From contig CBDCNV010000001.1 in assembly GCA_965219535.1 (NCBI GenBank), positions 840,001 through 872,000 on the forward strand: DNA of 32,000 bases, given 5' to 3'. The notes beneath the pieces were generated by a model. It worked only from the letters and a program-made list of their open reading frames with translations. It was not told the origin of the DNA and searched no databases. This document shows, piece by piece, positions 10,720 through 31,830 of the stretch (positions are counted from its first letter, which is position 1; every line of letters starts with the position of its first letter). A program made the translations under genes and the position numbers. This stretch comes from Opitutales bacterium (GTDB taxonomy: Bacteria; Verrucomicrobiota; Verrucomicrobiia; Opitutales; PNEW01).

Positions 10720-10785
10720 CGGCCACGACGGAGCGTGGCCCTCCCTTTTAATCAATCTCTGGAGGGCCACGCTCCGTCGTGGCCG
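10720..10785. repeat. Perfect 25-bp inverted repeat with a 16-nt loop (REP-like palindromic element, possible transcription stop for the upstream minus-strand operon)
   Basis: CGGCCACGACGGAGCGTGGCCCTCC (10720-10744) and its exact reverse complement GGAGGGCCACGCTCCGTCGTGGCCG (10761-10785). GC-rich inside an AT-rich spacer. There is no T-run on either side. Confidence 0.7.
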
Positions 10786-18197: not shown

Positions 18198-18290
<93 letters not shown>

Positions 18291-18345
18291 ATTTATCGAC
18301 ATCTTGTCAATATTTGTTAATTATAATTAGCAAATTTTAATCTAG

Positions 18346-19575
18346 ATGGCGAAACAGAGATTTAAGATTACCAGGTTTATCAACCCGAGTGGCTCAGAAG
18401 CCTGGCGCTTATCCGGCACCCTGAATGGTAAGCAAATACGTAAGAATTTCAAATCCCGCAACGATGCTGTCGCCGAGCGTCAGCGGTTATCGATTCGATA
18501 TTTAAACGAACAATCCGAAGGGCAGACCGTATGGACAACCCTGACCCAGTTGCAGAACAAAGAGGCCATTTCAGCTATTAATCTTCTTAACCAAGCCAAG
18601 TCCAATAAGTCTCTCACCTTCGCTGTTAACTATTTTTTAGGGCATTATAAAGAAGCTGCTGAAACAATGACCGTCGAAGAGGCCGTCCATGAGTATTGCG
18701 ATCATAAGTCCAAGGAAATGGAGCGTGGGATCATCTCATTATGCCAGGAGCAGGGCATCACGCGTGAGATGAAAAAGTTAAAGGGTATTTTTGGGGGACG
18801 GATCGTTAACGAAATTCAACCTGTTGAGTTGAATACTTACCTCGACACACGACACCATCGTTCAAAAGAAGTGCTCTCCCTTAAAACCTGGAATAACCGC
18901 CGAGGATACCTAAGCACTTTCTTCAAATACTGCGTGTCAAAGAAATATGTGGGAGAAAACCCGATCCTGGAAGTTCCCCAGTATAAAATAAAGCAACGCA
19001 GGGGTAGCGCAGAGATTCTCTCTGCTAATGAAGCATCCGAATTGATGGAGTGGCTGGAAACTTATCGTGGAAAGCAGAACAAGGACGGATCCTTTTGGGG
19101 TGAATCCGGGTGCATGGTTCCCTATTTTGCATTAGCCCTGTTTGCAGGAATCAGGCCCGACTGGGAGCACGGTGAAATGGGAAAACTCAAAACCAAGCAC
19201 ATCCGTATGGATACCGGGGTTATCCTTATCGAACCGGAGGTCTCGAAAGTAAAGGAAAAGCGAGCCATTAAAATCCAACCCAACCTTAGTCTGTGGCTGG
19301 AGAAATATCCTCTTTCTATATACCCAATCATCCCAGCAAGGAGGTTCAGTGACATGTGGGCTCATGTCCGAAAAGAGCACAAACTTTCTCAGAATGTCCT
19401 TCGTCATACCTATATATCGATGACGGTGGGGTCCTTCCGCTCGGTAGGAGACGCCGCCCTTCAGGCGGGTAACTCTGAATCCGTGATCCGCAAATACTAT
19501 CTCGACCTGGTAACTAAAGAGGAAGCAGATCGCTTCTGGCAGATAGTTCCACTGAGCGATCAATTAGTTCGGTAA
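18346..19575 (+). CDS. Tyrosine-type site-specific integrase (phage integrase family)
   Basis: 409 aa, 57 nt downstream of tRNA-Ser. C-terminal catalytic region has GIRPDW, VLRHTYISM (HxxR) and IRKYYLD (Tyr). Confidence 0.85.
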   Translation: MAKQRFKITRFINPSGSEAWRLSGTLNGKQIRKNFKSRNDAVAERQRLSIRYLNEQSEGQTVWTTLTQLQNKEAISAINLLNQAKSNKSLTFAVNYFLGHYKEAAETMTVEEAVHEYCDHKSKEMERGIISLCQEQGITREMKKLKGIFGGRIVNEIQPVELNTYLDTRHHRSKEVLSLKTWNNRRGYLSTFFKYCVSKKYVGENPILEVPQYKIKQRRGSAEILSANEASELMEWLETYRGKQNKDGSFWGESGCMVPYFALALFAGIRPDWEHGEMGKLKTKHIRMDTGVILIEPEVSKVKEKRAIKIQPNLSLWLEKYPLSIYPIIPARRFSDMWAHVRKEHKLSQNVLRHTYISMTVGSFRSVGDAALQAGNSESVIRKYYLDLVTKEEADRFWQIVPLSDQLVR

Positions 19576-19599
19576 GCTTAATAAAATAGGGGGACTTCG

Positions 19600-20256: not shown

Positions 20257-20580
20257 CTAACGGTCGACATCTAAAGGAATACCAAGCTTGATACGCCGTG
20301 CACTTTCATCACTCATAAACCGGGCTGCGGGTTTAGTTGTTTCACCCCTTAGAGCAGCTAACCGCTTGGCGGGTTCAGGCCAGCTTATATCTGGGTAATG
20401 ATCCGCACAGTAACGCACCAATAAATCGACTGTCCTTATTGTGATCCGACCTGATTTATACCTGATTGCACTATAAGCATGGGCATTGCCTGTAGCTTTG
20501 GCAAACAAAGTCAGTGGAGTAATGCCCCCAGACTCGCAAACCGCGTTGACCAGTTCCTCAATTTCTTCAACGTAGATCAT
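20257..20580 (-). CDS. Hypothetical 107-aa island protein
   Basis: Clean ORF with ATG start. No motif recognised. Its 5' end and upstream region are tandemly duplicated (see repeat 20518-21040). Confidence 0.45.
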   Translation of the reverse strand: MIYVEEIEELVNAVCESGGITPLTLFAKATGNAHAYSAIRYKSGRITIRTVDLLVRYCADHYPDISWPEPAKRLAALRGETTKPAARFMSDESARRIKLGIPLDVDR

Positions 20581-21040
20581 TGTTTATATACAAAGAGTCA
20601 ACTTATATTAAATTACAACATTTATAATAAAAAGGGGAATAGTTAGACCTACAGGTGAGACAAAAGTTAAAATTTCACTTCCACAAAACCCTGATCGGAT
20701 CCAAAATAGCGATTGTGTCACTTCTTTTCAATAGAATCCAAAACAAGCAATGTGCTTGATTTAGCGAGGCCGTATGATACTCCCAAACTCGCAATCCGCG
20801 TCGATCAATCTTTTTAATGTAAATCATTGTTTATATACAAATAGTCAATTTATATTAAATTGCAATATTTATAGTGGAAAAAGGGAACAGATAAACCCAC
20901 AGGCGAGATAGGAGTTAAAATTTCACTTCCACAAAACCCTGATCGGATCCAAAATAGCGATTGTGTCGCTTCTTTTCAACAGAATCCAAAACAAGCAATG
21001 TGCTTGTTTTAGCAAGGCCGTCTAGTGCCCCTAAGATTCG
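20518..21040. repeat. Tandem direct duplication, unit ~246 bp, about 2.1 copies
   Basis: ATCATTGTTTATATACAAA...TTCACTTCCACAAAACCCTGATCGGATCCAAAATAGCGATTGTGTC...AACAAGCAATGTGCTTG occurs at 20577-20773 and 20823-21021 with scattered substitutions. Each unit also carries the first ~55 nt of the 20257-20580 gene (second copy reads MIYIKKIDRRGLRVWEY...). Confidence 0.8.
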
Positions 21041-21143
21041 TTTTGATTTTGTTTTGATATAAAAAGGCGTATAGGGGAAACAACAACCTCATAAGGGATA
21101 GTAGGGTAGCGAGGTGTCGGTTCCCAGCTGGTCGAGATCACGA

Positions 21144-22455
21144 AAACAGGTCCACTAGAAAAGTTAGTCTGGGACACCTGGAAAGGACTCAGACAATGAA
21201 AGGCAAAAGATATACAACTGAAGAGAAGATACGGATGCTACGGCAGGCAGACAAAGGGAAAACGATCCTGGAAGTATGCCGCGAGAACAACATAAGCGAA
21301 CAGACCTACGACCGCTGGAAACGTGAGTTTGGGATGATTGATGTCAACCAGGCCAAGCGGATGAAGGAACTCTTTGAAGGAGAACGCGCGGTTAAAGCGG
21401 ATGCTGGCGGACAAGCTGCTGGGGATAGAGATTCTGCAGAAGACGCTCGAAAAAAAATGGTAGATGTCGCTTATGCTCGGTAGTAAGCCCTGGGCACAAG
21501 CGGCAAGTGGCAGAGAGACTTGTGGCCCGGGGCCAGTGTTCGATACGTGGAGCGTGCCGATACTTTCACCTGCACCGCTCCACCTATGCGTATCGGGCGA
21601 AGTATCCTGATGCCTGGCTAACGAAACTGAAGGCGGCAGTAAGGCGGTTATCACGGCAATACGCGAGGTGGGGCTATCCGAAGATCACGAAGCTGTTGAA
21701 GGACGAAGGCTGGCAGGTGGGTAAACGGCTCGTGCAAGGTCTGCGACGTGAACTGGGCCTGGCGATCCCCCCACGCAAGCCAAGACGCCGGCGCAGGGGT
21801 GTCTCCACCGGGCTGCCGACGAAGGCCGAACATCCCGACCATGTTTGGACCTGGGACTTTATCCACGATAAGACGGTCCGCGGTGGGAATCTCAAAATGC
21901 TGACCGTCCTTGACGAGTACACCCGCGAGTGTCGGGTGATCCATGTCGATCGCCATATCAATGCGGAGAAGGTGCGCGGGGTCATGCAAAAACTGCTCGA
22001 CCGTCATGGGCCACCAAAATATATTCGCAGCGACAATGGATCGGTTCCGAGGAGCGAAGCGACGACATGCGAAGCCATTTATTGGAAGTGAATTGAGAGT
22101 CTGGCTAACTGCGATGAAAATCAATACCCTCTATAGCGAACCAGCAAGCCCTTGGCAGAACGGATACATCGAATCGTTCCATGCACGTTTTCGCGAGGAG
22201 TGTCTAAATCGTGAACAGCTGTGGACTTTGACCGAAGCCCGTGTGGTGATCGAAGATTGGCGCTGGCTTTACAATCATGTTCGACCCCACCGCAGCCTCG
22301 GCAATATTACTCCACAACGTTTCGCTGAAAACCTCAATACCGAAGGCTCGGGCTCCATTCGGGCTACGCCCTCATTGCGCCCAAGTCTTGACTTCCTCTA
22401 CCAACTTAACTTCAACATTAACCTCTCCAGACTAACTCTCTCAGTGGACCTGTTT
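21144..22455 (+). mobile_element. IS3-family insertion sequence, copy 1 (about 1.3 kb), transposase disrupted
   Basis: Imperfect terminal inverted repeats AAACAGGTCCACTAGAAAAGTTAGTCTGG (21144-21172) and CCAGACTAACTCTCTCAGTGGACCTGTTT (22427-22455). OrfA HTH/leucine-zipper plus OrfB DDE (rve) coding content. Confidence 0.75.
21196..21483 (+). pseudogene. IS3 OrfA (HTH transposase subunit) with a frame change near 21370-21376
   Basis: N-terminal KRYTTEEKIRMLRQADKGKTILEVCRENNISEQTYDRWKREF is in the track frame. The expected zipper LKENARLKRMLADKLLGIEILQKTLEKKW* (stop 21461-21463) is in the +1 frame. Confidence 0.7.
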
Positions 22456-22461
22456 GTGTAA
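21507..22461 (+). pseudogene. IS3 OrfB (DDE/rve transposase) split after the DNG motif by a 31-34-nt insert
   Basis: ORF 21507-22091 ends ...HGPPKYIRSDNGSVPRSEATTCEAIYWK*. ORF 21943-22461 (+1 frame) carries ...PFIGSELRVWL...PWQNGYIESFHARFREECLN...HRSLG. Confidence 0.8.
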
Positions 22462-22712
22462 CCCGACCAGCGGCTAAGGAAATTGAATTTGCAGGTTTTG
22501 AAATTGGTGAAAAAGTAGAAGCTTTTCCAACGACACGCTTTCTTGATATTGGCGCCGTTGTTTATTACTTAAGGATGATCCCCTGGCAGATTCCCGATCT
22601 TACTTTGGACAAATACCGCGAAAGATTATTTAAGATTCATCAGCAGATTCAAATAGAAGGAAACCTCAAAGTTCAGAGTCACCGATTTTATATTAAAGCG
22701 ATTAAAGCATGA
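22458..22712 (+). pseudogene. 3' fragment of a class I SAM-dependent methyltransferase gene, 5' part removed at the IS copy 1 boundary
   Basis: Hand translation TRPAAKEIEFAGFEIGEKVEAFPTTRFLDIGAVVYYLRMIPWQIPDLTLDKYRERLFKIHQQIQIEGNLKVQSHRFYIKAIKA*. It resembles the C-terminal region of a methyltransferase family I recall next to resistance-type kinases. The stop overlaps the APH start (ATGA). Confidence 0.55.
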
Positions 22713-23599
22713 AGTCTCGATATATAGATAGAATTAAAAAACATTTTCCCAACATCGATATCAATAATATTAGTGAGAATAATGATGGCCTAATTAATGA
22801 CGTTTTAATCATTAATGAAGATCGGGTATTCCGCTTTGCAAAGGATATTAAAGGCGCAAAGAAGGCATTAAAAAATGAAATACAGTTTGTTAAATTGATA
22901 GCGCCCTACGTTGGGCTAAACGTTCCTGATTTCGATCTTTTAGAAGACGACTTTGTCTCCTATCAATTTATCTCAGGAAAACCACTGCTGCGAAATGATA
23001 TCGTAATTCTCAATGACAGTGATCAGGACAAGATAGCTCAACAATTAGCCGAATTCCTTAAAGCATTACATACACTCCCGGAGGTATTGTGGTTGGAACA
23101 TGAAATTGGACCTTCAGATGTCAATAGAAACCGTGAAGTCTGGTGTAAACTCTACACAGATATTCAAGAACAACTCTTCCCGCATATGATGAGTCACAAT
23201 AAAGAATTGGTAAGGAGACATTTTGAACCAGTTATTTCGAATAAACTTCCAATGGAATATCGGCCCGCTTTAATTAACGGTGATATGGGTACTTATCATA
23301 TCCTCTATGATTCAGCCCAGAAAAAGATTAACGGGGTTATAGATTTCGGGACAGCGGGCGTTGGGGACCCCGCGGCTGATCTAGCATGCATGTTATATTA
23401 CTATGGAGAAAGTTTCGTTCAGAGAATGAATAAATATTATCCGGAACTTAGTGAAGCCATAGACCGTGCTCGATTTTGCGCGGGTACCTTTGAGCTTCAA
23501 TGTGCACTGGGTGGTATTCGGACTAAAAATCTATCGTGGTTCATGATGCATCTTGGAGGAATGAGGGACATGAATCCTTTGGCATTTAAAGCAGAATAA
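22709..23599 (+). CDS. Aminoglycoside phosphotransferase (APH) / phosphotransferase enzyme family kinase
   Basis: 296 aa. Catalytic-loop-like LINGDMGTYHILYD and IDFGTAGVGDPAADLA (Brenner/DFG-type motifs of the APH fold). Confidence 0.75.
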   Translation: MKSRYIDRIKKHFPNIDINNISENNDGLINDVLIINEDRVFRFAKDIKGAKKALKNEIQFVKLIAPYVGLNVPDFDLLEDDFVSYQFISGKPLLRNDIVILNDSDQDKIAQQLAEFLKALHTLPEVLWLEHEIGPSDVNRNREVWCKLYTDIQEQLFPHMMSHNKELVRRHFEPVISNKLPMEYRPALINGDMGTYHILYDSAQKKINGVIDFGTAGVGDPAADLACMLYYYGESFVQRMNKYYPELSEAIDRARFCAGTFELQCALGGIRTKNLSWFMMHLGGMRDMNPLAFKAE

Positions 23600-23615
23600 C
23601 GTAAGAGTCATAAGA

Positions 23616-24149
23616 ATGAATACTATTAGTGAAGCCAGTCGTTGGCGTCGACAGATTGCAGAACAAATTGCAAAGCGTTACGCTGAGAACAGTAAAGTTG
23701 ATGCCGTTTTCTTAGGCGGCTCTGCCGCTCGAGGCTGTGCTGACGGTCATTCAGACATGGAGTTAGGTGTCTTCTGGAATGAAGATCCTTTAAAGGAAGA
23801 GAGGGAAAAGGTAGTTCAATCGTTAGAGTTTATAGATAAACAATATATTGGGATTCATTCCTATAACGCCGATAAGGAAATATGGGACGATGATTTTTAT
23901 CTAGGTACTGACATTCAAGGGAATAGAGCCTCTGGCAGTCTTGTCGAAGTTGGCCCTCAAAGAACGGAGTACATCGAAAGGATTTTAAAGGAAGTAACGG
24001 GAGAATTTAATCCTGACGATATCAAGCAAAGTTTGCTTGTAGGAGTAATCAATGCCATTTCCTACTTTGGTATCGAGAAAATCAACAAGTGGAAATCTGA
24101 TCGGGTTACGCAAACTGGTCCACCAAGAGAGTTAGCCTGGAGAAGTTAA
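23616..24149 (+). CDS. Nucleotidyltransferase-domain protein (KNTase/ANT-like), 3'-truncated by an IS end
   Basis: GGSAARGCADGHSDMELGVFW is the minimal NTase G-S...D-x-D/E motif. The last ~12 codons (from about 24112) are read out of an inverted IS terminus, so the native C-terminus is missing. Confidence 0.6.
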   Translation: MNTISEASRWRRQIAEQIAKRYAENSKVDAVFLGGSAARGCADGHSDMELGVFWNEDPLKEEREKVVQSLEFIDKQYIGIHSYNADKEIWDDDFYLGTDIQGNRASGSLVEVGPQRTEYIERILKEVTGEFNPDDIKQSLLVGVINAISYFGIEKINKWKSDRVTQTGPPRELAWRS

Positions 24150-24206
24150 TGTTTAAGTTAAGTTGGTAGAGGAAGTCAAGGTTTGGGCGCAATGAGGGCG
24201 TAGCCC
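24112..24206 (-). mobile_element. Inverted 95-bp right-end fragment of an IS copy-1-type element
   Basis: AAACTGGTCCACCAAGAGAGTTAGCCTGGAGAAGTTAATGTTTAAGTTAAGTTGGTAGAGGAAGTCAAGGTTTGGGCGCAATGAGGGCGTAGCCC is the near-exact reverse complement of 22361-22455. Confidence 0.75.
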
Positions 24207-24432
24207 GCGTGGTGATCGAAGATTACCGTTGGCTCTACCATCATATCTACCCCCATAGCAGCCTCAGCAATATTACCCCACTGCACTTCGCTGAAGATCT
24301 CAATACCGAAGGTTCAGGCTCCATTCGGGCTAAGCCTTCACTTCGTCAGGATCTCTCCTATACATAAATCCTAATACCATTAATATACGGTAACTCTCTC
24401 ACTTAATAATTGGTACGAAAAACGGGTGACCT
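24203..24432 (+). mobile_element. 3'-terminal fragment (~230 bp) of a copy-1/copy-3-type IS3 element
   Basis: CGTGGTGATCGAAGATTACCGTTGGCTCTACCATCAT...GGCTCCATTCGGGCTAAGCC parallels 22244-22370. The end ...CGGTAACTCTCTCACTTAATAATTGGTACGAAAAACGGGT matches the copy 3 terminus at 30612-30650. Confidence 0.65.
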
Positions 24433-24512
24433 GTCCCCGAAAAACTGGACCAGCAAAGATTTAGTCTGGCATGGGTGAAAAACCTAATATAAGATAGGAG
24501 AAAGAACGACCC

Positions 24513-24812
24513 ATGAAAAGCAAAGGCAAACGCTATAACAAAGAACAAATCATCTATGCCCTAAGGCAGGTAGAAGGCGGTCGAAGGATTGCCGAAGGGT
24601 GCCGAGAGTTAGGCGTAAGCGAACAGACCTACCACCGATGGAAGGGTAAATACGCGGGCCTGGGAATAAGCGAATTAAGACGACTGAAGCAACTCGACGA
24701 AGAGAACGCTAGTTTGAAGAAGCTGGTAGCTGATCTGAGCCTGGACAAGCACATGCTGCAGGAAGTTATCGCAAAAAATTATAAAGCCTGTGCGCAAGAA
24801 GGCGATTACTGA
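24513..24812 (+). CDS. IS3 OrfA (HTH plus leucine zipper)
   Basis: KRYNKEQIIYALRQVEGGRRIAEGCRELGVSEQTYHRWKGKYAGLGISELRRLKQLDEENASLKKLVADLSLDKHMLQEV. Confidence 0.85.
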   Translation: MKSKGKRYNKEQIIYALRQVEGGRRIAEGCRELGVSEQTYHRWKGKYAGLGISELRRLKQLDEENASLKKLVADLSLDKHMLQEVIAKNYKACAQEGDY

Positions 24813-25656
24813 CTGGTTAGTGGAAGCTTATGCGGTGAGCAAACGCCGGGCGTGCAGGCTGATGCAGTTGTCTTGGTCGAGTTATAACTACCAGCCTGTG
24901 AAGAAGGATGAACGCGCGTTGATCGTGCGTATACGTGACCTCGCCTCAGCGCGCGTGCGCTACGGGTATCGGCGAATCACGGTGTTATTAAAGCGGGAAG
25001 GCTGGACGGTAGGAAAGAAACGCGTTTATCGTATTTACAAGGCCGAAGGGCTGGAAGTGCGCACGAAGAAACGAAAGAAGCGTGCTGCGAAAAGGCGGGT
25101 CTCACTGCCTGCGGCTACAGCAGCCCAGGAGCGCTGGTCGATGGACTTTATGAGCGATCGGCTGACCAACGGCCGCCCCTTCCGCATACTCACCGTTGTC
25201 GACCAATACACCCGAGCTTGCCCACTGCTTCTAGCCGATACGTCCATCGGTGGGAGCAAAGTCGTTGCAGCACTTACGAAAGCCGCCGCAGGAATCGGTC
25301 TTCCCCAAACCATTACCGTCGATAATGGTCCCGAGTTTGCCGGCAAAGTACTCGATGAGTGGGCTTATGGCCACGGCATCAAGCTGGATTTTATCCGCCC
25401 AGGCAAACCCGTAGAGAATGGTTATATTAAGAGCTTCAATGGAAGCTTACGAGATGAACTTCTTAACACCGAGCTATTTAGTACGCTCGCTGAAGCGAAA
25501 GAAAAACTTGAAGCCTGGCGGCTTGATTATAATACTCAAAGACCACACAGTTCTCTGGGCTATCGGCCTCCGGCCGAATACGTCCACAGAGCCATGTCTA
25601 AGCAAATTAAAACCCATACCACCCTGCCGGAACTAACACTGGCTCTGGTACAGTAA
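24790..25656 (+). CDS. IS3 OrfB (DDE/rve transposase)
   Basis: WSMDFMSD (D1), ITVDNGPEFAGK (D2), PGKPVENGYIKSFNGSLRDELLN (E region), QRPHSSLGYRPPAEY. The frame is +1 relative to OrfA, which is unusual (see findings). Confidence 0.85.
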   Translation: MRKKAITDWLVEAYAVSKRRACRLMQLSWSSYNYQPVKKDERALIVRIRDLASARVRYGYRRITVLLKREGWTVGKKRVYRIYKAEGLEVRTKKRKKRAAKRRVSLPAATAAQERWSMDFMSDRLTNGRPFRILTVVDQYTRACPLLLADTSIGGSKVVAALTKAAAGIGLPQTITVDNGPEFAGKVLDEWAYGHGIKLDFIRPGKPVENGYIKSFNGSLRDELLNTELFSTLAEAKEKLEAWRLDYNTQRPHSSLGYRPPAEYVHRAMSKQIKTHTTLPELTLALVQ

Positions 25657-26289
25657 ACGGGTGCAGGTCATTATCCCGATAACCTCTCTCTGTAAATGAT
25701 ACGATTTTGGGGGGTCACTCCAGACCCGAATCGATAGGACTGAATGGTTTACCTTGTCGTGTCTAATGAATTTCGTAAACCATGTCTTGAACTCCGTTCG
25801 ATCACGACTCGTTGTACCAATAAAAGGGTATTACCCCGATCACACGGTAGGCGAACAATGCAGATGCAATGTTTGATTCGACGGTTAGATTACAGGACGA
25901 ACCGCAATCATTCTCAAAAACAAATAAAGTAAGAATGCTGTCTTCTCAGAATTAAGCCCTCAGAGTTATATATGCAAATTCTTGAACTCGGTCATCGGTG
26001 AACCAATCTAGTAATTGAATCTTCATTATTTTCAGGACTGTCATCTCGAAGTTGCAGATTGTTACAGTTAATAACATATAATGAGATCGAGCGACATCCG
26101 CTCCCTCCATACTCCCCACTTTTTGCTATTTAACGCTATATACTACTATTTAGTTTCTCTGGACATAAGCGAGAAGATGATTCATGAGTGCTTATTAATT
26201 AATATAAAACATTGATATATAAGGAGTACTAAGGAGGAGAGTTGAACTCCCTATCAAAGGGCTGTATGGTCTTTGAGCATTATAATCAT

Positions 26290-26425
26290 GATCGGAGCCC
26301 ATTTTTCGTACCCGTTTAAGTGAGAGAGTTATCGGGTGTTAATGGTTTTAGGATTGGTGTATAGGAGAGATCTTGGCGAAATGAGGGCGTAGCCCGAACG
26401 CGGCCAAAAGCGGAAAGGAATCTGA
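26290..26425 (-). mobile_element. Inverted ~135-bp right-end fragment of a copy-3-type IS3 element
   Basis: GATCGGAGCCCATTTTTCGTACCCGTTTAAGTGAGAGAGTTATCGGGTG...GGCGAAATGAGGGCGTAGCCCGAACGCGGCCAAAAGCGGAAAGGAATCTG is the reverse complement of the 30523-30658 type sequence. Confidence 0.7.
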
Positions 26426-26540
26426 TAAACGCTTGTGGGAGAAGTTAATTTAAGGAGAATATTGACCAGAAATTATAGTGAACATGTGAATAGTATATAT
26501 GTTTGAAAAATAATTATTAATATATAAAAATTATAAACTT

Positions 26541-26705
26541 ATGAGTGATAAATCTAATATCGAATGGACGGATGCTACCTGGAACCCAGTACGGGGTTGC
26601 ACGAAAATATCTCCTGGCTGCAAGAATTGTTACGCAGAAACATTCGCAGAAAGATTCCGTGGAGTTATCGGTCACCCATATGAATTTGGATTCGATTTGC
26701 GTTTA
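26541..26705 (+). pseudogene. 5' fragment (about 55 codons) of a phage Gp37/Gp68-family (DUF5131) gene
   Basis: [55 protein letters not shown] matches the conserved N-terminus of that family as I recall it. The remainder of track ORF 26541-26774 is antisense to the helicase gene and unrelated. Confidence 0.65.
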
Positions 26706-28091
26706 GTTCATCACACGGCGCACCATCAAATATTTAAGTACTTTATCGCGTATTTCCCGCGCGTTTTCTTTTAACGTATTTATGTATTCTTTGTAGTCTA
26801 TTTTCCGATCCAGATTTTTAAGTTTTCTTTCCAAGCCATTGAAAAATGACTCCAGATCAGACAGGTTTGGGATTGTGCTTTTTTTGGCTTTCTGAAACAA
26901 CTTAAGCAGGCTTAGTATATCTTTTGGGGTGTTATTGTATGGTGTTGCCGTTACTAGGATAACCCTTTTCCCACGACATATTTCCGCTAATTTCTCGTAG
27001 GTAATTGTTGTTTCTGTTCGAAAGCGGTGTGCCTCATCTATAATGATATTAGTATATTTGACAGTTCCTTTTATTATCAGATCATCTAGCTTTCCGAGTG
27101 ATTCAAAATCCGCTGAAACTCTAAAGTCTGAAAAAACATTGGGCCAGGATCCAGGATTGGATTTTTCTAATAGCACAGGTGGTGCTATAATAAGCGTTCT
27201 ACCGTCCAGTTGACCTGCAAGCATGGCTGATATGTAGGTTTTACCCAATCCAACAACGTCCGAGATAAAAACACCGCCATATTCCAGGAGAATTTTTTTG
27301 GCGTTCAAGACCGCTTGCTCTTGATATTGCAATTTTTTAAACTCTTCCGGGAGATAATTTACAAAAACCTCATCAGTTTGATTTAGCTCATCTTTAAAAT
27401 ATTCGTACAGAAACTTAAGATAGAGCTGATACGGAGTAATATTTTGAGTCAACCAGGTCTTACTTTGAATGGTCTGAATATACTTTTCGCTGACATCTAC
27501 AGCGTCATGCCATAACTCCTCAAATTTGTTTTTAGCAAAATCATAGTCGCTTCTGTTTTTAAGTTCCACATTGAATTCAAGATTGTCAACAAGCCCAGCT
27601 TGTGTGAAATTGCTAGAACCTGTGATGACACGTCCAATATCCCTATCGCCTTCCTTAAATGTCATAATATATAGTTTGGCGTGGATATTTTGAGATGGAT
27701 AGGCTTTGACTTCTAATTTTTTCCCCTTAACCCATTCAATAAACTTGTTTACACCCTCTTCGACTTCTTTTTTATCTTCTGAGTCAGCTAACTCTTGTTG
27801 TATCTGCTTTTCAACTTGTTCCTTAGCTTCTGTATGTGAAAATTCTATAATTTGCTGGTTTGGATTATTTGTATTTTCGAGCCAATTATAGGTCTGCCTA
27901 TTGGTGCTAATACCAATCAGAATTCGTATTTTCTCCGTAGTCTCTAGAGACCTATAAATAGAATGAAATCCGCTTGAAAAGAAATAACCTATCAGGCAAT
28001 CAAAAAAAGCTGTATCTTTAATCAACTTTTCAAATCTGTCTCTTAGGTTTTGATTTTTTTCGTTCGTAATGAATGATAAATCAATATTCAA
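26703..28091 (-). CDS. PLD-nuclease-domain / SNF2-family helicase fusion, C-terminally truncated (no Helicase_C half)
   Basis: HKD motif NIHAKLYIM...[18 protein letters not shown]2 N-lobe: motif I DVVGLGKT, motif [12 protein letters not shown], motif [13 protein letters not shown]. The ORF ends ...[10 protein letters not shown], where the C-terminal helicase lobe should begin. Confidence 0.75.
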
Positions 28092-28124
28092 TGTATTATC
28101 CTATTACTAATTGTCATTTAAATG

Positions 28125-29340
28125 GTGGAGTGACCTCTAAAAAATCTTATCATTTACAATGAGAGGTTATCGGGATAATGACCTGCTCTCGTATACTGCA
28201 CCAGAGCCAGTGTTAGTTCCAGCAAAATATGACCTACTCCCGATTACTGTTCTAGAGCCAATGTTAGTTCCGGCAGGGTAATATGGGTTTTGATTTGCTT
28301 AGACATGGCTCTCTGGGCGTATTCGGCCGGAGGACGATAGCCCAGAGTACTGTGTGGTCTATGGGTATTATAATCTAGGCAGTAATGTTCAAGCTTTTCC
28401 TGTACCTCGGCCAAGGAAAAGAAGATCTCAGTGTCAAGGAGTTCACCGCGCAGCTTGCTGTTGAAGGACTCGATGTAGCTGTTTTCAGTCGGCCTACCTG
28501 AACGGATAAAGTCTAGGTTGATACCCTTATGTGCGCCGATGGATTGGTCGGCCTAGAGCACTGAGCAGGAACGATCATCATGATCAACCACGGTAAGAAC
28601 ACGAAAGCGAGCGACATCGTCCAACTTGTCCGCCATAAAGATCATACTCCAACGCGGTCCAGTGGCTTCGGCTTGAGGCTAAGGCACCCGGGACCTCGAT
28701 GCGTGCTTTTTACGCTTTTTCGTGCGCACCTCTAGCCCCTCAGCTTTATAGATGCGGTAGACCCGCTTGGGGCCTACTGACGAACCTTCACGCTTTAGCA
28801 ATACTGTAAGACGTCGATATCCATAGCGCACAAATGCTGCGGTCAGATCCCGGATAAGTATAGTCAGCGCTCGTTCATTGGGCGGCGGCTTAGGCTAATT
28901 GCAGAAACTCGACCCGTTTAGTGGCAGCACCCCGCACCCTCGGCTGTAGCTGATCTCGAAGATCTCCCCTGCCTTACGCACCAACTCCGTCTTGTATGCG
29001 TTTTAAACTTTTTTGAAACGATCTCTTGTAGAATATGTTTATCGAGACTCAAATCTGCCACCAACTTGCGCAGTGACATGTTCTCATCCTCCAACTTCTT
29101 CAACCTTCTAAGCTCGCTCACTCCCATCCCCACATACTGCTTCTTCCAGCGGTAGTAAGTTCGCTCCGTCACTCCCAACTCGCGACACTCCTCGGTGACT
29201 TTGCGGCCACCGTCCGTCTGCCGTAGCGCGTAGATTATATGTTCTTCTTTCTAGCGTTTACCTTTGCTTTTCATTTTTGGATCGGGTCCTTTCTATCTAC
29301 CCCATCTGTCCCTAGCTAGCCTAACACTTCGTTGGCCCAA
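28125..29340 (-). mobile_element. IS3-family copy 4: decayed copy-2-type element (stops, frameshifts, internal deletion)
   Basis: Minus strand reads MKSKGKR*KEEHIIYALRQTDGGRKVTEECRELGVTERTYYRWKKQY...LVADLSLDKHILQEIVSKK with slippery A AAA AAG (29008-29014). OrfB follows as ...VRYGYRRLTVLLKREG...RVLTVVDH...LDFIRSGRPTENSYIESFNSKLRGELL...HRPHSTLGYRPPAEY, with in-frame stops and the DNGPEF segment deleted. Confidence 0.7.
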
Positions 29341-30658
29341 ATTTACGGGTGTAGGTCAAACAGATAACCTCAATGAAAAGAAAAAGACACCCAACAGAAC
29401 AGATAATCGCAATACTACGACAAGCCGATACCGGCAAAACGGTACAGGAAGTCTGCCGTAGTAACAATCTAAGCGAACAGACCTTCTATCGCTGGGGTAA
29501 AAAGTATGGCAACTTGGAGCTAGCCGATGCTCTAGCGATATAAAGAGCTGGAAAAAGAAAACACCGAACTGAAGAAATTGCTCGCTGATCAAAAGCTCAA
29601 AAATCAGGTTTTGGAGGAAACGTTGTCAAAAAAGTGGTGAGCCCAAAGCAGAAGAAGCGAGCAGTAAAAGATGCGGCTGAGAAAGGGCTGTGCTCGTTTT
29701 AGAGGGCATATTCCTATCTCAGCCTCAGTTGGTCAACGTTCAGCTACCGGCCCAAGCAGGCCAATAAGAAAGCTCAGCGATTGGGCGAGCGGATTGTAAC
29801 CCTGTCCTGGGAACATCCTCGCTACGGTTACCGTCGCATCCGTGCCTTGCTTGTAAAGGAAGGCTGGACAACAAGCAGGAAGTTTGTTCAGGCGGTACGA
29901 CGCTCAGAAGGGCTGCAGGTAAAGCCACCGAAAAAGCGTAGACACCGTCAAGGAGTCTCTACGGGGTCGCCTACTAAAGCAAACGGTCGCAATCACATTT
30001 GGTCCTGGGACTTTGTCCATGACCGCACAGACAATGGCTGTCCATTAAAGATGATGACTCTGATCGATGTACCGAGGAGCTGAAAGCGACGACACTCAAG
30101 CGAAGCGAAGACATATACGCGTCAATGCTTGGATATCCGGGTCGCCCGTCAACTCACCTCTACCGATGTCCTCTCTGTGCTTAGCGAGGCCATTGAAGAG
30201 GAGGGAACTCCTAGCTATATCCGTAGTGACAACGGCAGTGTTCCGAGGAGCGAAGCGACGACATGCGAAGCCATTCATTGCTCATCAACTGTAGCAGTGG
30301 TTGTCCGACAAAAAGATCAAGGCGATCTATATCGATCCGGGTAGTCCATGGCAAAACGGTTTCATCGAGTCGTTTCACAACCGCTTACCCGATGCGTGTT
30401 TGAACCGTGAAGTGTTGCTCAGCGTAGCTGAAGCGCAAGTGGTAATTGAATAATGGCGTCAGACCTATAACCATGAACATCCCCACAGTCGTTTAGGCTT
30501 TAAAAGCCCACAAGAGTTTGTCAGATTCCTTTCCGCTCTTGGCCGCGTTCGGGCTACGCCCTCACTGCGCCAAGATCTCTCATATACATCAATCCTAAAA
30601 CCATTAACTCTCGATAACTCTCTCACTTAAAAATTGGTACGAAAAACAGGGTCCAATC
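29341..30658 (+). mobile_element. IS3-family copy 3: decayed element related to copy 1, left end abutted or clipped by copy 4
   Basis: OrfA from ATG 29373 (MKRKRHPTEQIIAILRQADTGKTVQEVCRSNNLSEQTFYRW...), frameshifted near 29535. Canonical slippery A AAA AAG at 29628-29634. OrfB pieces are in track ORFs 29781-30083 and 30129-30344 and beyond (PGSPWQNGFIESFHN), with TGA, TAG and TAA interruptions. Right terminus ...GGTACGAAAAACAGGGTCCAATC. Confidence 0.7.
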
Positions 30659-30798
30659 ACAGACAATAACTTTTTGGTTGATCGGAAGTTGAGAAGAAAA
30701 CTATCAATGTTGTTGCCTGGCAGAGTTGCGATTTGATCCCACAGTGTCTGACAGATCAAGGCGCAACAAGTACATATAATTTTCACAATAACATATAA

Positions 30799-31662
30799 TT
30801 ATACTCTACTATTTTTATGAGCATTTTCGATTAATTCTTTCAGTAATTCACAATGGGTTTTGATGTCTCCTTCCCGTATCCTAAGATTATATTTTTCCAA
30901 CCTTGTTACATATTCAGCATCGAGTTCTGCTTCTTCCAGTTTTTTATTCAAGCTAGAGTTTTCTGGTAAACGTATCTGAAGACTAACCCATTGTTTCTTA
31001 GGCCTGCATGTAATAAAGTTATTTGGAATACCAGCTTTAGCTAAGCCAATATAGAACTTGTTGTATTTAAATTCAATTTGAGCATCTATTGATTTTACTA
31101 TTTCAAGTATTTTATCGGCCATCGCAATTGTTTTCTTAGACCCCCTCTTAATCCAATAATCCCTATCGGTTACTTCATGGCTTTCTTCATCCTCATCAAT
31201 CAACCCCAATGCAAGTTCATCTATTACTTTAGTAAAAGTAAGTCCAATCCCTTCACCGACTTTTATAGCATTCACTTGTATAGCGACCAGTGGAATCATT
31301 CCATTAAATAACGATACAATATTTAGAAATCGACTAGTAATGTCCTCAGCTACTAATACAGCACAATGGTCATATTGAGGATATCTTTTTCTTTCAAGAT
31401 CCCAATACTCAATTGTGCGAACGATATGACTTTCATCAGTGGGCCCAAGTTGCACCTCGACTTCATATCTTTTATTATTATCAGGATCTTGGAGTAGTAG
31501 ATCTAAACGCCCTGCCCTGGGTTGCCTTCGTTCTTTATCTCTGAGTAAAACATCTCCTAGCCCTAAAATTGTCGGATCACTGGCAATAGCTTTCTGAACC
31601 CAAATTTCATTAATTTCAGGATGCTGCTTTATTGAGATAGTTTCTAATTTAATGTGTTGCAT
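30799..31662 (-). CDS. PD-(D/E)XK-like nuclease-fold protein with an uncharacterised C-terminal domain
   Basis: GRLDLLLQDPDNNKRYEVEVQLGPTDESHIVRTIEYW followed by HCAVLVAEDITSRFLNIVSLFN resembles the GR(I/L)D(I/L)L...E-x-Q-L...TD..H...Y family of restriction-endonuclease-like proteins (recollection only). AT-rich gene between IS debris. Confidence 0.45.
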   Translation of the reverse strand: MQHIKLETISIKQHPEINEIWVQKAIASDPTILGLGDVLLRDKERRQPRAGRLDLLLQDPDNNKRYEVEVQLGPTDESHIVRTIEYWDLERKRYPQYDHCAVLVAEDITSRFLNIVSLFNGMIPLVAIQVNAIKVGEGIGLTFTKVIDELALGLIDEDEESHEVTDRDYWIKRGSKKTIAMADKILEIVKSIDAQIEFKYNKFYIGLAKAGIPNNFITCRPKKQWVSLQIRLPENSSLNKKLEEAELDAEYVTRLEKYNLRIREGDIKTHCELLKELIENAHKNSRV

Positions 31663-31784
31663 GATTTCTCATAGTTAAGTCTTAATTGCGTATCAATTTA
31701 ATTCGTTTATCAGGTATCTATCCTAGAACCTATCTACTAACTAAATATATGAGCCAATTGGGGAACTGTAAACGGGAGTCAACA

Positions 31785-31830
31785 CCCGGTAACTCTCTCA
31801 CTTAAACTGCTACGAAAAAGGGGTCCGATC
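31785..31830 (+). mobile_element. Solo ~45-bp right-terminus fragment of a copy-3-type IS3 element
   Basis: CCCGGTAACTCTCTCACTTAAACTGCTACGAAAAAGGGGTCCGATC matches 30612-30658 and the reverse complement of 26290-26335. Confidence 0.6.

Follow-up and report, generated by a model that had tools for sequence, protein, structure and literature searches.

The window analyzed here comprises 32,000 nucleotides (nt) from an Opitutales bacterium (GenBank assembly GCA_965219535.1, contig CBDCNV010000001.1, positions 840,001 to 872,000), and contains three copies of insertion sequences (IS) of the IS3 family, two of which carry the same very short DNA segment within their transposase genes. This segment, which we call the mini-insert, is the subject of this work. 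The host elements were assigned to the IS3 family by the Pfam domains HTH_Tnp_1 in OrfA and HTH_21, rve and rve_3 in OrfB, and by the A-run located between both open reading frames (ORFs). Copy 1 (21129–22469, + strand, with ends TGGTCGAG...CCCGACCA) is defective, with a 1-nt insertion in OrfA (TTT, 21373–21375) and two mini-inserts. Copy 3 (29358–30665, + strand), whose left end is truncated or rearranged, is also defective, as it shows an early stop in OrfB (TAG, 29700–29702), further stops and two mini-inserts. Copy 2 (24513–25656, + strand, with OrfA at 24513–24812 and OrfB at 24790–25656) is intact.

A 36-mer, GTTCCGAGGAGCGAAGCGACGACATGCGAAGCCATT, is found as two exact copies in the window, at 22044–22079 in copy 1 and at 30240–30275 in copy 3, both on the + strand, with 0 copies expected in shuffled sequence. 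In both cases it is directly preceded by the SDNGS codons of OrfB, and downstream of it OrfB continues in the +1 frame, as had been noticed in an earlier inspection of the letters by themselves (the sequence-only reading). That reading also held that the two hosts are different IS3 species, that the segment is far better conserved than the coding sequence around it, and that copy 2 has nothing at this position, and the three claims were borne out. Both hosts share 47% protein identity, and over around 206 aligned nt their flanks are 47.6% divergent, whereas the insert differs at 0 of 33 positions (P about 1e-7), the identity dropping sharply at the insert edges to reach the background level within 20 nt on each side. 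In copy 2 the homologous codon is empty despite its matching G|AG|TTT context (GGTCCCG|AG|TTTGCC). A sequencing or adapter artefact was ruled out, as the element is present in independent long- and short-read assemblies in addition to the window.

In order to find further copies, the pattern CCGAGGAGC-N0-1-GAA-N0-1-GCGACGAC was scanned in one genome per species, and at least 104 loci matched. Among the matches listed, about half correspond to two Opitutales metagenome-assembled genomes (MAGs, CBDANS01 and OY829953), within IS copies of both window families. Matches between the window and these MAGs are confined to mobile elements and do not exceed 97.7%. An alignment of 46 IS copies from the two MAGs was made, including a c1 family (copy 1 type), a c3 family (copy 3 type) and a third IS species, L086, 77% identical to c1. 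Some of these copies lack one or another insert, and because of this the junctions are known exactly. Five fixed sites exist in the IS3 genes, and comparison of filled and empty alleles showed that every one of them corresponds to S|AR|W, with AR replaced by TWCCGAG...CA.

At site 2, GGCAGTG|AG|TTCATT in c3 or GGTTCCG|AG|TTTATT in c1 becomes G-TTCCGAGGAGCGAAGCGACGACATGCGAAGCCA-TTC, in such a way that 33 nt take the place of AG, with a net gain of 31 nt. In copy 1 (22045–22077, + strand; defined by the exact repeat, by the insert-free sister copy L058:651-1939 and by L105/L106) the AG belongs to the Glu codon of SDNGS-E-F, and its replacement shifts OrfB to +1. The insert of copy 3 (30241–30273, + strand) is identical in sequence and codon, and its empty alleles (L044 and L108) read GGCAGTG|AG|TTCATT. 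The segment of 31–34 nt proposed from the sequence has an exact size of 33 nt, with AG of GAG replaced and a net +31, as given by the insert-free sister copies. At site 1, TCGATG|AA|TATACG becomes G-TACCGAGGAGCTGAAAGCGACGACACTCAAGCGAAGCGAAGACA-TAT, with 44 nt in place of AA (net +42). In copy 3 this insert spans 30070–30113 (+ strand; empty alleles L001, L065, L090, L099 and L108), takes the place of AA in the Glu codon of LID-E-YTR and contains an in-frame TGA. A gapped search of copy 3 detected there GAGGAGCtGAAaGCGACGA (30074–30092) as a third related string. The site-0 insert has the reverse orientation and lies in copy 1 at 21458–21482 (− strand), directly 3' of the A8 frameshift run. Its 25 nt (minus-strand TACCGAGCATAAGCGACATCTACCA) replace CT, which is AG on the minus strand, with a net +23 and the OrfA stop inside, and it was delimited by presence/absence in the 46-copy alignment (columns 361–384) and by a lesion tally. 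These last two members of the family (30070–30113, 44 nt; 21458–21482, 25 nt, reverse) had not been listed as such in the sequence-only reading. With them, copy 1 is filled at sites 0 and 2, and copy 3 at sites 1 and 2. The two remaining sites are site 3, TGGC|AA|AACGG in PWQNG, with 44 nt, a net +42 and the frame open, and site 4, GATG|AG|TGT in RDECL, with 37 nt and a net +35.

Short target duplications flanking the inserts were looked for and none was found, two target nucleotides being replaced instead. The lone exception is a partial site-2 allele of 21 nt (L107:3050-3095) that consists of the 5' module only, GGCAGTG-TTCCGAGGAGCGAAGCG AGTG-AGTTC, in which the target AG is kept and AGTG (4 nt) is duplicated. 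This allele is in frame (SDNGS-VPRSEAS-EF), and its transposase is otherwise intact (P0132, which is a cluster of 42 sequences). Here the left junction is fixed and the right one is variable, and one may speculate that this is the pattern expected of a copy-in process starting at the left junction.

The sites are polymorphic for presence and absence between otherwise nearly identical IS copies. The empty copy L058:651-1939 differs from the filled L001/L084 only by the insert, by AG>CA and by TTT>TTC 3 nt away, with 0 other substitutions in 1.3 kb, and the empty L106 differs from the filled and doubly lesioned c1 group 4 by 12 of 1318 positions. Both filled groups are around 6% apart from each other. 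Close to the junction only AG>CA separates filled copies from the nearest empty ones, with the next substitutions at least 90–210 nt away, and the TTT>TTC change, 3 nt from the insert, was co-converted in one gain or loss event. The inserts are also much more similar than the flanks when lineages are compared: c3 subgroups A and B are 13.6% divergent in the flanks and differ at 0 of 77 insert positions (P about 1e-5), and between L086 and c3 the flanks are 41% divergent and the inserts differ at 2 of 77. The inserts are pristine even in subgroup B, which was already dead by a shared stop, and the invariance therefore reflects recent horizontal spread and not constraint. Public proteins show the same horizontal distribution, with filled alleles scattered among empty ones and with independent assortment of the sites (P0129/P0166, P0147, P0148, P0005, P0135). 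Intact insert-free transposases of both families are common among them (P0001-P0004, P0121-P0134), and truncated filled forms (P0049, P0147, P0154, P0162, P0166) are interleaved with these.

Recombination between IS copies is frequent. Mosaic copies were detected (L016, L038), and also hybrids between c1 and c3 (L081:4628-5956 and L090:3316-5616), with c1-type sequence upstream and c3-type sequence downstream of the site-2 insert, or the reverse. These chimeras switch type exactly at the insert, and the shared 33 nt act as the place of crossover for two IS species with 47% divergence elsewhere. Comparison of c1 with c3 shows native flanks that reach both junctions, with identical blocks of only 11 and 7 nt in the vicinity, and it is unlikely that ordinary homologous conversion across 47% divergence would give this result. 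The second proposal of the sequence-only reading, a short conversion tract between IS species, thus accounts for the mosaics, for the chimeras that switch at the insert and for the co-converted TTT>TTC, but it leaves the native flanks at 47% divergence unexplained. Our conclusion is that IS lineages acquire the insert from one another horizontally and with precision, either by true site-specific insertion or by very short templated copying between co-resident copies.

The mini-insert belongs to a family of 25–50 nt with a shared core, CCGAG(GA)GC-GAA-GCGAC(GAC), preceded by 1–2 variable bases and followed by a 3' module of variable sequence whose end is CA and often CCA. GCGAAGC is an extraordinarily stable mini-hairpin (PMC13037366). 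Pairing within the core is retained by compensated variants, such as GCT-GAA-AGC at site 1, AC-GTA-GT at site 4 and GT-GAA-AC in L014, and the additions that distinguish long from short cores are symmetric on both arms. The Watson-Crick stem has only 2–3 bp (GC-GAA-GC), and further pairing would require tandem G.A pairs. A core hairpin is what these compensated changes and the published GCGAAGC data suggest. Similarity to a hammerhead ribozyme was considered for CCGAGGA-[GCGAAGC]-GAC and rejected from the sequence, as two essential core positions differ. A permissive scan of the window (20900–31000) with Rfam 15 gave no relevant ribozyme or intron match, and at the gathering threshold 16 loci yielded tRNAs and signal recognition particle (SRP) RNA only.

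In the Opitutales loci and the window, the element lies only inside IS3-like genes, as 273 kb of their non-IS DNA gave 0 copies. The idea of a small site-specific insertion element that hits transposase genes, which was the first proposal of the sequence-only reading and is the best supported one given the five IS3 sites, has to be widened, since the element is not limited to these genes: it recurs in independent lineages and in unrelated sequences, namely a HAD-like phage gene and, in other phyla, hairpin loops and the T-loops of tRNA 3'-end duplicates. The HAD-like gene (156 aa, on two viral contigs; L110:7669-8139 and L111:12016-12486, both on the − strand) has an in-frame insert of 48 nt that is a longer, Coraliomargarita-type variant. 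Around 100 homologues have 140 aa and read ...DAYFA-E-ISA..., whereas the insert-bearing ones read ...DAYFA-VPRSEATTRPGAERTGP-ISA... Here a Glu codon is interrupted at G|AR, the element starts with TTCCGAGG, and the codon phase is that of the IS3 sites. As the same junction is used in an unrelated gene, the junction rule belongs to the element and not to the IS3 genes.

In Coraliomargarita and other Opitutales, unrelated hairpins were also found to carry the identical 20-mer core in their apical loops, and Actinomycetota have it in tandem repeats. In Woeseiaceae and in one verrucomicrobium the element lies in the T-loop (TTCGA^ATC) of a duplicated tRNA 3' end, where the AR rule is approximate. 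These duplicates, comprising T-arm, acceptor strand and CCA (L008:1-240(-), L050:3390-3600(+), L083:7300-7560(-), L097:2760-3030(-)), follow a true tRNA-Arg or tRNA-Met gene with its terminator at a distance of around 70 nt, and their T-loop inserts have 41–60 nt. Each resembles a very small att-type duplication, with the element placed where integrase crossover usually occurs. A location inside a genuine tRNA gene was ruled out, as ARAGORN and Rfam place the intact true tRNA around 70 nt upstream. Some matches in Acidobacteria and Chloroflexota show TGTC-ATT...GAAT, and some of those in GC-rich genomes are probably ordinary coding sequence matched by chance. In addition, a palindromic repeat of around 110 nt (CTAACATTTGCTTAACCTG...CAGGTTGAAGCAGTTGTTAG) centred on the identical 20-nt core was observed in eight loci (L012, L020, L035, L057, L069, L079, L085, L095) from Spirochaete/Treponema genomes plus one bin labelled Acholeplasmatales. 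Its structure suggests a composite element, similar to a miniature inverted-repeat transposable element (MITE), built around the mini-insert.

The filled IS copies were further analyzed regarding whether the insert is tolerated or INACTIVATING. Many of them have reading frames that are open on both sides of each insert, and L094 becomes a perfect IS3 after in-silico removal of its two inserts. The site-2 insert breaks the frame just after the second catalytic Asp, and it would therefore inactivate the transposase. Other lethal lesions co-occur with the inserts in copies that have multiplied. The OrfB stop (TTG CGG > TTT TAG; 29700–29702 in the window) occurs at different loci in at least 14 c3 copies, the whole of subgroup B among them, and the 1-nt insertion in OrfA (21373–21375 in the window), which destroys the leucine-zipper frame and fuses OrfA' to OrfB in a 300-aa ORF present in public data as P0049, is found in most c1 copies, across subgroups and at different loci. 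Dead IS copies evidently proliferate or are homogenised. Abundance and a low ratio of nonsynonymous to synonymous substitution rates (dN/dS) do not imply function, because filled copies that share other lethal lesions still multiply, and each filled lineage has a near-identical empty and intact relative from whose insert-free ancestors the low dN/dS would be inherited; on these grounds it was disqualified as a sign of function. Most likely, the inserts knock out the IS3 transposase genes rather than being read through.

The main alternative in this respect is that ribosomes bypass the inserts or frameshift across them, as in gene 60 or in byps, or that the inserts are excised from the mRNA, which would provide an extra throttle on the transposase. 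Such recoding or RNA-level removal was also the third proposal of the sequence-only reading, which had pointed to a hop between two GGA codons. It would explain that several copies are perfect IS3 elements once the inserts are removed in silico, and that dN/dS is 0.12–0.3 downstream of a frame-breaking insert, and it agrees with the identical codon phase of all five coding insertions. At site 1, AGC-UGA lies inside the mini-hairpin with an in-frame AGC 21 nt downstream, and at site 2 a GCG in the 0 frame and a GCG in the +1 frame lie 10 nt apart, with the +1 frame open through the insert. However, this GCG pair is internal and no matched take-off and landing pair spans the site-2 insert, so that a hop over the whole insert was rejected for lack of matched codons. 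The GGA pair is not conserved, as it is missing in copy 3, and sites 0 to 4 have no common geometry (net +23, +42 with a stop, +31, +42 and +35). The other lethal lesions and the near-identical empty relatives described above weigh against this explanation as well, and so do the pristine insert of the dead subgroup B, the existence of an in-frame partial derivative (P0132) and the Rfam scan without ribozyme or intron match. Moreover, the product of the removal would turn a conserved Glu into Ala or Pro. We consider this alternative very improbable. A split gene with an internal start was rejected too, as the ATG of the insert, which follows GAGGAG, is not in frame with the C-terminal part.

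Taken with the junctions and the distribution, this leads us to propose, with moderate confidence, that the 36-mer is a copy of a tiny non-coding and non-autonomous mobile element, a member of a 25–50-nt family that replaces AR and is specialised here on IS3 transposase genes, which it disables. According to this proposal, the element would insert precisely, replacing an A-R dinucleotide after G (sometimes C) without target duplication. In the Opitutales lineage the family would have colonised the IS3 transposase genes at five fixed positions, with one own variant at each, and the IS copies loaded in this way would be maintained and amplified as non-autonomous passengers. Insert-free copies, which are rarer, would presumably mobilise them in trans, and recombination among copies would shuffle them. 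The insert would be handed horizontally and precisely between IS lineages and IS species, and because of this passage between species it would be identical despite flanks that are half divergent.

In favor of this proposal, each IS offers 77–88 S|AR|W sites and 11–18 GART sites, in such a way that the re-use of sites is strongly non-random; the same site, always with the same variant, is filled in c1 (at least twice), c3 and L086. Several data weigh against it. The target consensus is too short to account alone for three IS species being hit at the same codon by the same variant, and the strict pairing of site and variant is more natural for copying from allele to allele than for insertion from a pool. 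A guide- or homology-like match of each variant to its own target flanks was rejected, as there was no diagonal signal. No mobilising enzyme or autonomous partner was found. Nearest-neighbour folding assigns no significant stability to the element. The low dN/dS (at dS 0.1–0.23) would on its own also fit tolerance, and several filled copies (c3 subgroup A, L099, L109 and L001/L084) have no lesion besides the inserts. Finally, the loci were sampled by the motif, and the counts of filled and empty copies are not a genome ratio. Apart from these points, targeting of hairpin loops at the IS sites was considered and rejected, as only c3 site 2 shows a clear loop (GGCAGTG[AGTT]CATTGCT; the empty target reads GGCAGTG AG TTCATTGCT and forms a hairpin).

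Two other explanations were considered, each of which we regard as unlikely, though to be taken seriously. One is a single insertion per site, after which co-resident IS3 copies only passed the insert on by gene conversion, by template switching or as chimeras, so that no site-specific insertion activity would act on the IS genes today. The one-variant-per-site pairing across c1, c3 and L086 speaks for it, and the mosaics, the c1/c3 chimeras L081 and L090 joined exactly at the insert, and the co-converted TTT>TTC in one lineage show such exchanges; the other lesions (OrfA frameshift, OrfB stop) are also patchy across subgroups. Nevertheless, c1 and c3 keep native flanks to both junctions at 47% divergence with identical blocks of only 11 and 7 nt, filled copies lack donor-type polymorphisms within 90–210 nt of the insert, and the family demonstrably inserts de novo elsewhere by the same junction rule. 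The other explanation, to which we give a similarly limited weight, is that the mini-insert homes specifically to IS3 transposase genes and "sterilises" them. In it, an activity supplied in trans would find a few conserved positions in the coding sequence of the DDE core and install the cognate variant of 25–44 nt with single-nucleotide precision, driving it to near-fixation among the copies of the genome, either as a hyperparasite riding on IS3 or as an anti-transposon system encoded by the host. Least plausible of all is an ancient shared descent, with an insert older than the split of the IS species and a sequence held invariant by selection. The perfect identity across very divergent IS species and the fact that mutated inserts are mainly found in the most degenerate copies (L004, L021, L045, L065) could be cited in its favor. 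Yet empty and filled alleles are 0–1% apart inside lineages that are 6% apart, and this interleaving largely refutes it; inserts that assort independently of the IS phylogeny, common intact insert-free relatives and pristine inserts in lineages already inactivated by a shared stop point in the same direction. The findings on which the sequence-only reading could have failed came out in its favor, as insert-free relatives exist, the identity is confined to the insert, and the motif is widespread.

The mobile mini-insert was compared with known systems. No paper on this motif or on tiny inserts in transposase cores was found in a literature search, and we conclude that the family is previously undescribed, its closest known kind being the small palindromic repeats of the repetitive extragenic palindrome (REP) type, including REPINs (PMC3116915). 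Di Nocera et al. 2013 (PMC3733652) described REPs tagged with GTAG or CGTC, with CGTC families that have CCA tails and no dedicated transposase; in that work intragenic REPs are most numerous in Opitutus terrae, also an Opitutales, and the Rickettsia palindromic elements (RPEs) count as members. Like REPs and REPINs, which have 20–40 nt, the mini-inserts are very small, putatively hairpin-based, non-coding and apparently mobile; REPs are found in many phyla, and intragenic ones are documented. They differ in the stem, of 8–9 pairs in REPs (with 5–13 bp as the REP criterion) and 2–3 Watson-Crick pairs here, and in the tag, missing at the defining position: CGTC appears only on the strand opposite to the ...CCA tail, 2 nt from the end, and GTAG only in the site-0 variant. 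Nor are mini-inserts dispersed extragenically or as inverted dimers (0 in the 273 kb of non-IS DNA), whereas they have a defined AR-replaced junction, re-use transposase codons and mostly break the frame. A RAYT transposase (IS200/IS605-type), with which REPs are associated, was not seen among the window ORFs examined. Membership of the GTAG REP families of O. terrae was rejected, as the REP peptides, such as VGPALAAG, and the sequences differ.

RPEs are also selfish palindromic inserts in coding genes that are sometimes read through as peptides, with counterparts here at site 3, in P0005/P0135 and in the HAD-like gene, but they have 100–150 bp and are in frame, whereas mini-inserts have 25–50 nt and half of them are out of frame or contain a stop. 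MITEs share with mini-inserts their non-autonomous nature, short size, amplification and capability to sit within other elements; unlike them, mini-inserts have no terminal inverted repeats, no target-site duplication and no parent IS sharing their ends, and are 5–10 times smaller. The small dispersed repeats (SDRs) of heterocyst-forming cyanobacteria are reportedly mobile sequences of around 20–30 nt with conserved ends and a variable centre that are nested in mobile elements; as described, they resemble the mini-inserts, but phylum and sequence differ. They are functional analogues and not relatives. The same holds for the bypass elements, as the T4 gene 60 element is itself mobile and byps exist in Magnusiomyces mitochondria (bioRxiv 10.1101/2022.08.31.505936). 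These are also short mobile inserts in ORFs (27–55 nt) with a compact and stable hairpin on the 5' side, and the site-1 variant likewise has a stop right after a codon that recurs in frame downstream. In contrast to them, mini-inserts show no conserved matched take-off and landing codons, co-occur with other lesions and are also found in non-coding loops.

The neighbourhood of the filled copies was also analyzed. The region from 20.5 to 31.9 kb is an IS graveyard (20558–21034, 24097–24219, 26298–26439, 31781–31823), with a 248-nt tandem duplication just upstream of copy 1, solo inverted fragments of c1- and c3-type 3' ends, and genes for an APH-like kinase, a nucleotidyltransferase and a truncated PLD/SNF2 helicase. 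A search with the c1 end pattern matched the window copy only. Near the C-terminus of OrfB both IS species have a hairpin (22348–22388 and 30538–30578, with fragments at 24179–24219 and 26368–26405) with species-specific stems (GGCTTGGGC/GCCCAAGCC in c1, AGATCTTGGC/GCCAAGATCT in c3) and an identical 17-nt loop, TTCGGGCTACGCCCTCA, whose other strand includes GCGTAGC. Distant homologues conserve the peptide that it encodes, G-S-[IV]-R-x-T-x-S-L-R, and the hairpin is therefore probably a structured signal of long standing in this IS3 subgroup. Given this age, the species-specific stems and the conserved peptide, the 17-nt island was rejected as a sixth insert and regarded as the hairpin loop. Upstream, at 18236–19596, there is a repeated element with a 409-aa ORF and a weak phage-integrase N-terminal domain, in whose homologues filled c1 copies (L016, L032, L038) are inserted at three different positions. 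At 10720–10785, between convergent genes, a perfect 25-nt inverted repeat (CGGCCACGACGGAGCGTGGCCCTCC and its complement, 16-nt spacer) is probably a terminator or a REP-like hairpin.

If our proposal is right, few mobile DNA elements whose insertion signature is defined would be as small as these mini-inserts, which replace a dinucleotide without duplication and whose conserved 20-nt core spans Verrucomicrobiota, Spirochaetes, Gammaproteobacteria, Acidobacteria and phage contigs. They bear on how REP-like elements without a dedicated transposase move, and a dedicated homing or sterilising mechanism, if true, would be of high interest. For the annotation of MAGs, many apparent "frameshifted" transposase pseudogenes carry one exact shared lesion, and the filled, empty and partial alleles constitute a directly testable system. 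For the IS3 elements of this lineage, the mini-insert would be a parasite of a parasite, with a 33-nt insert that disables the catalytic core and makes most copies in the genome non-autonomous passengers, which bears on how IS expansions are curbed.

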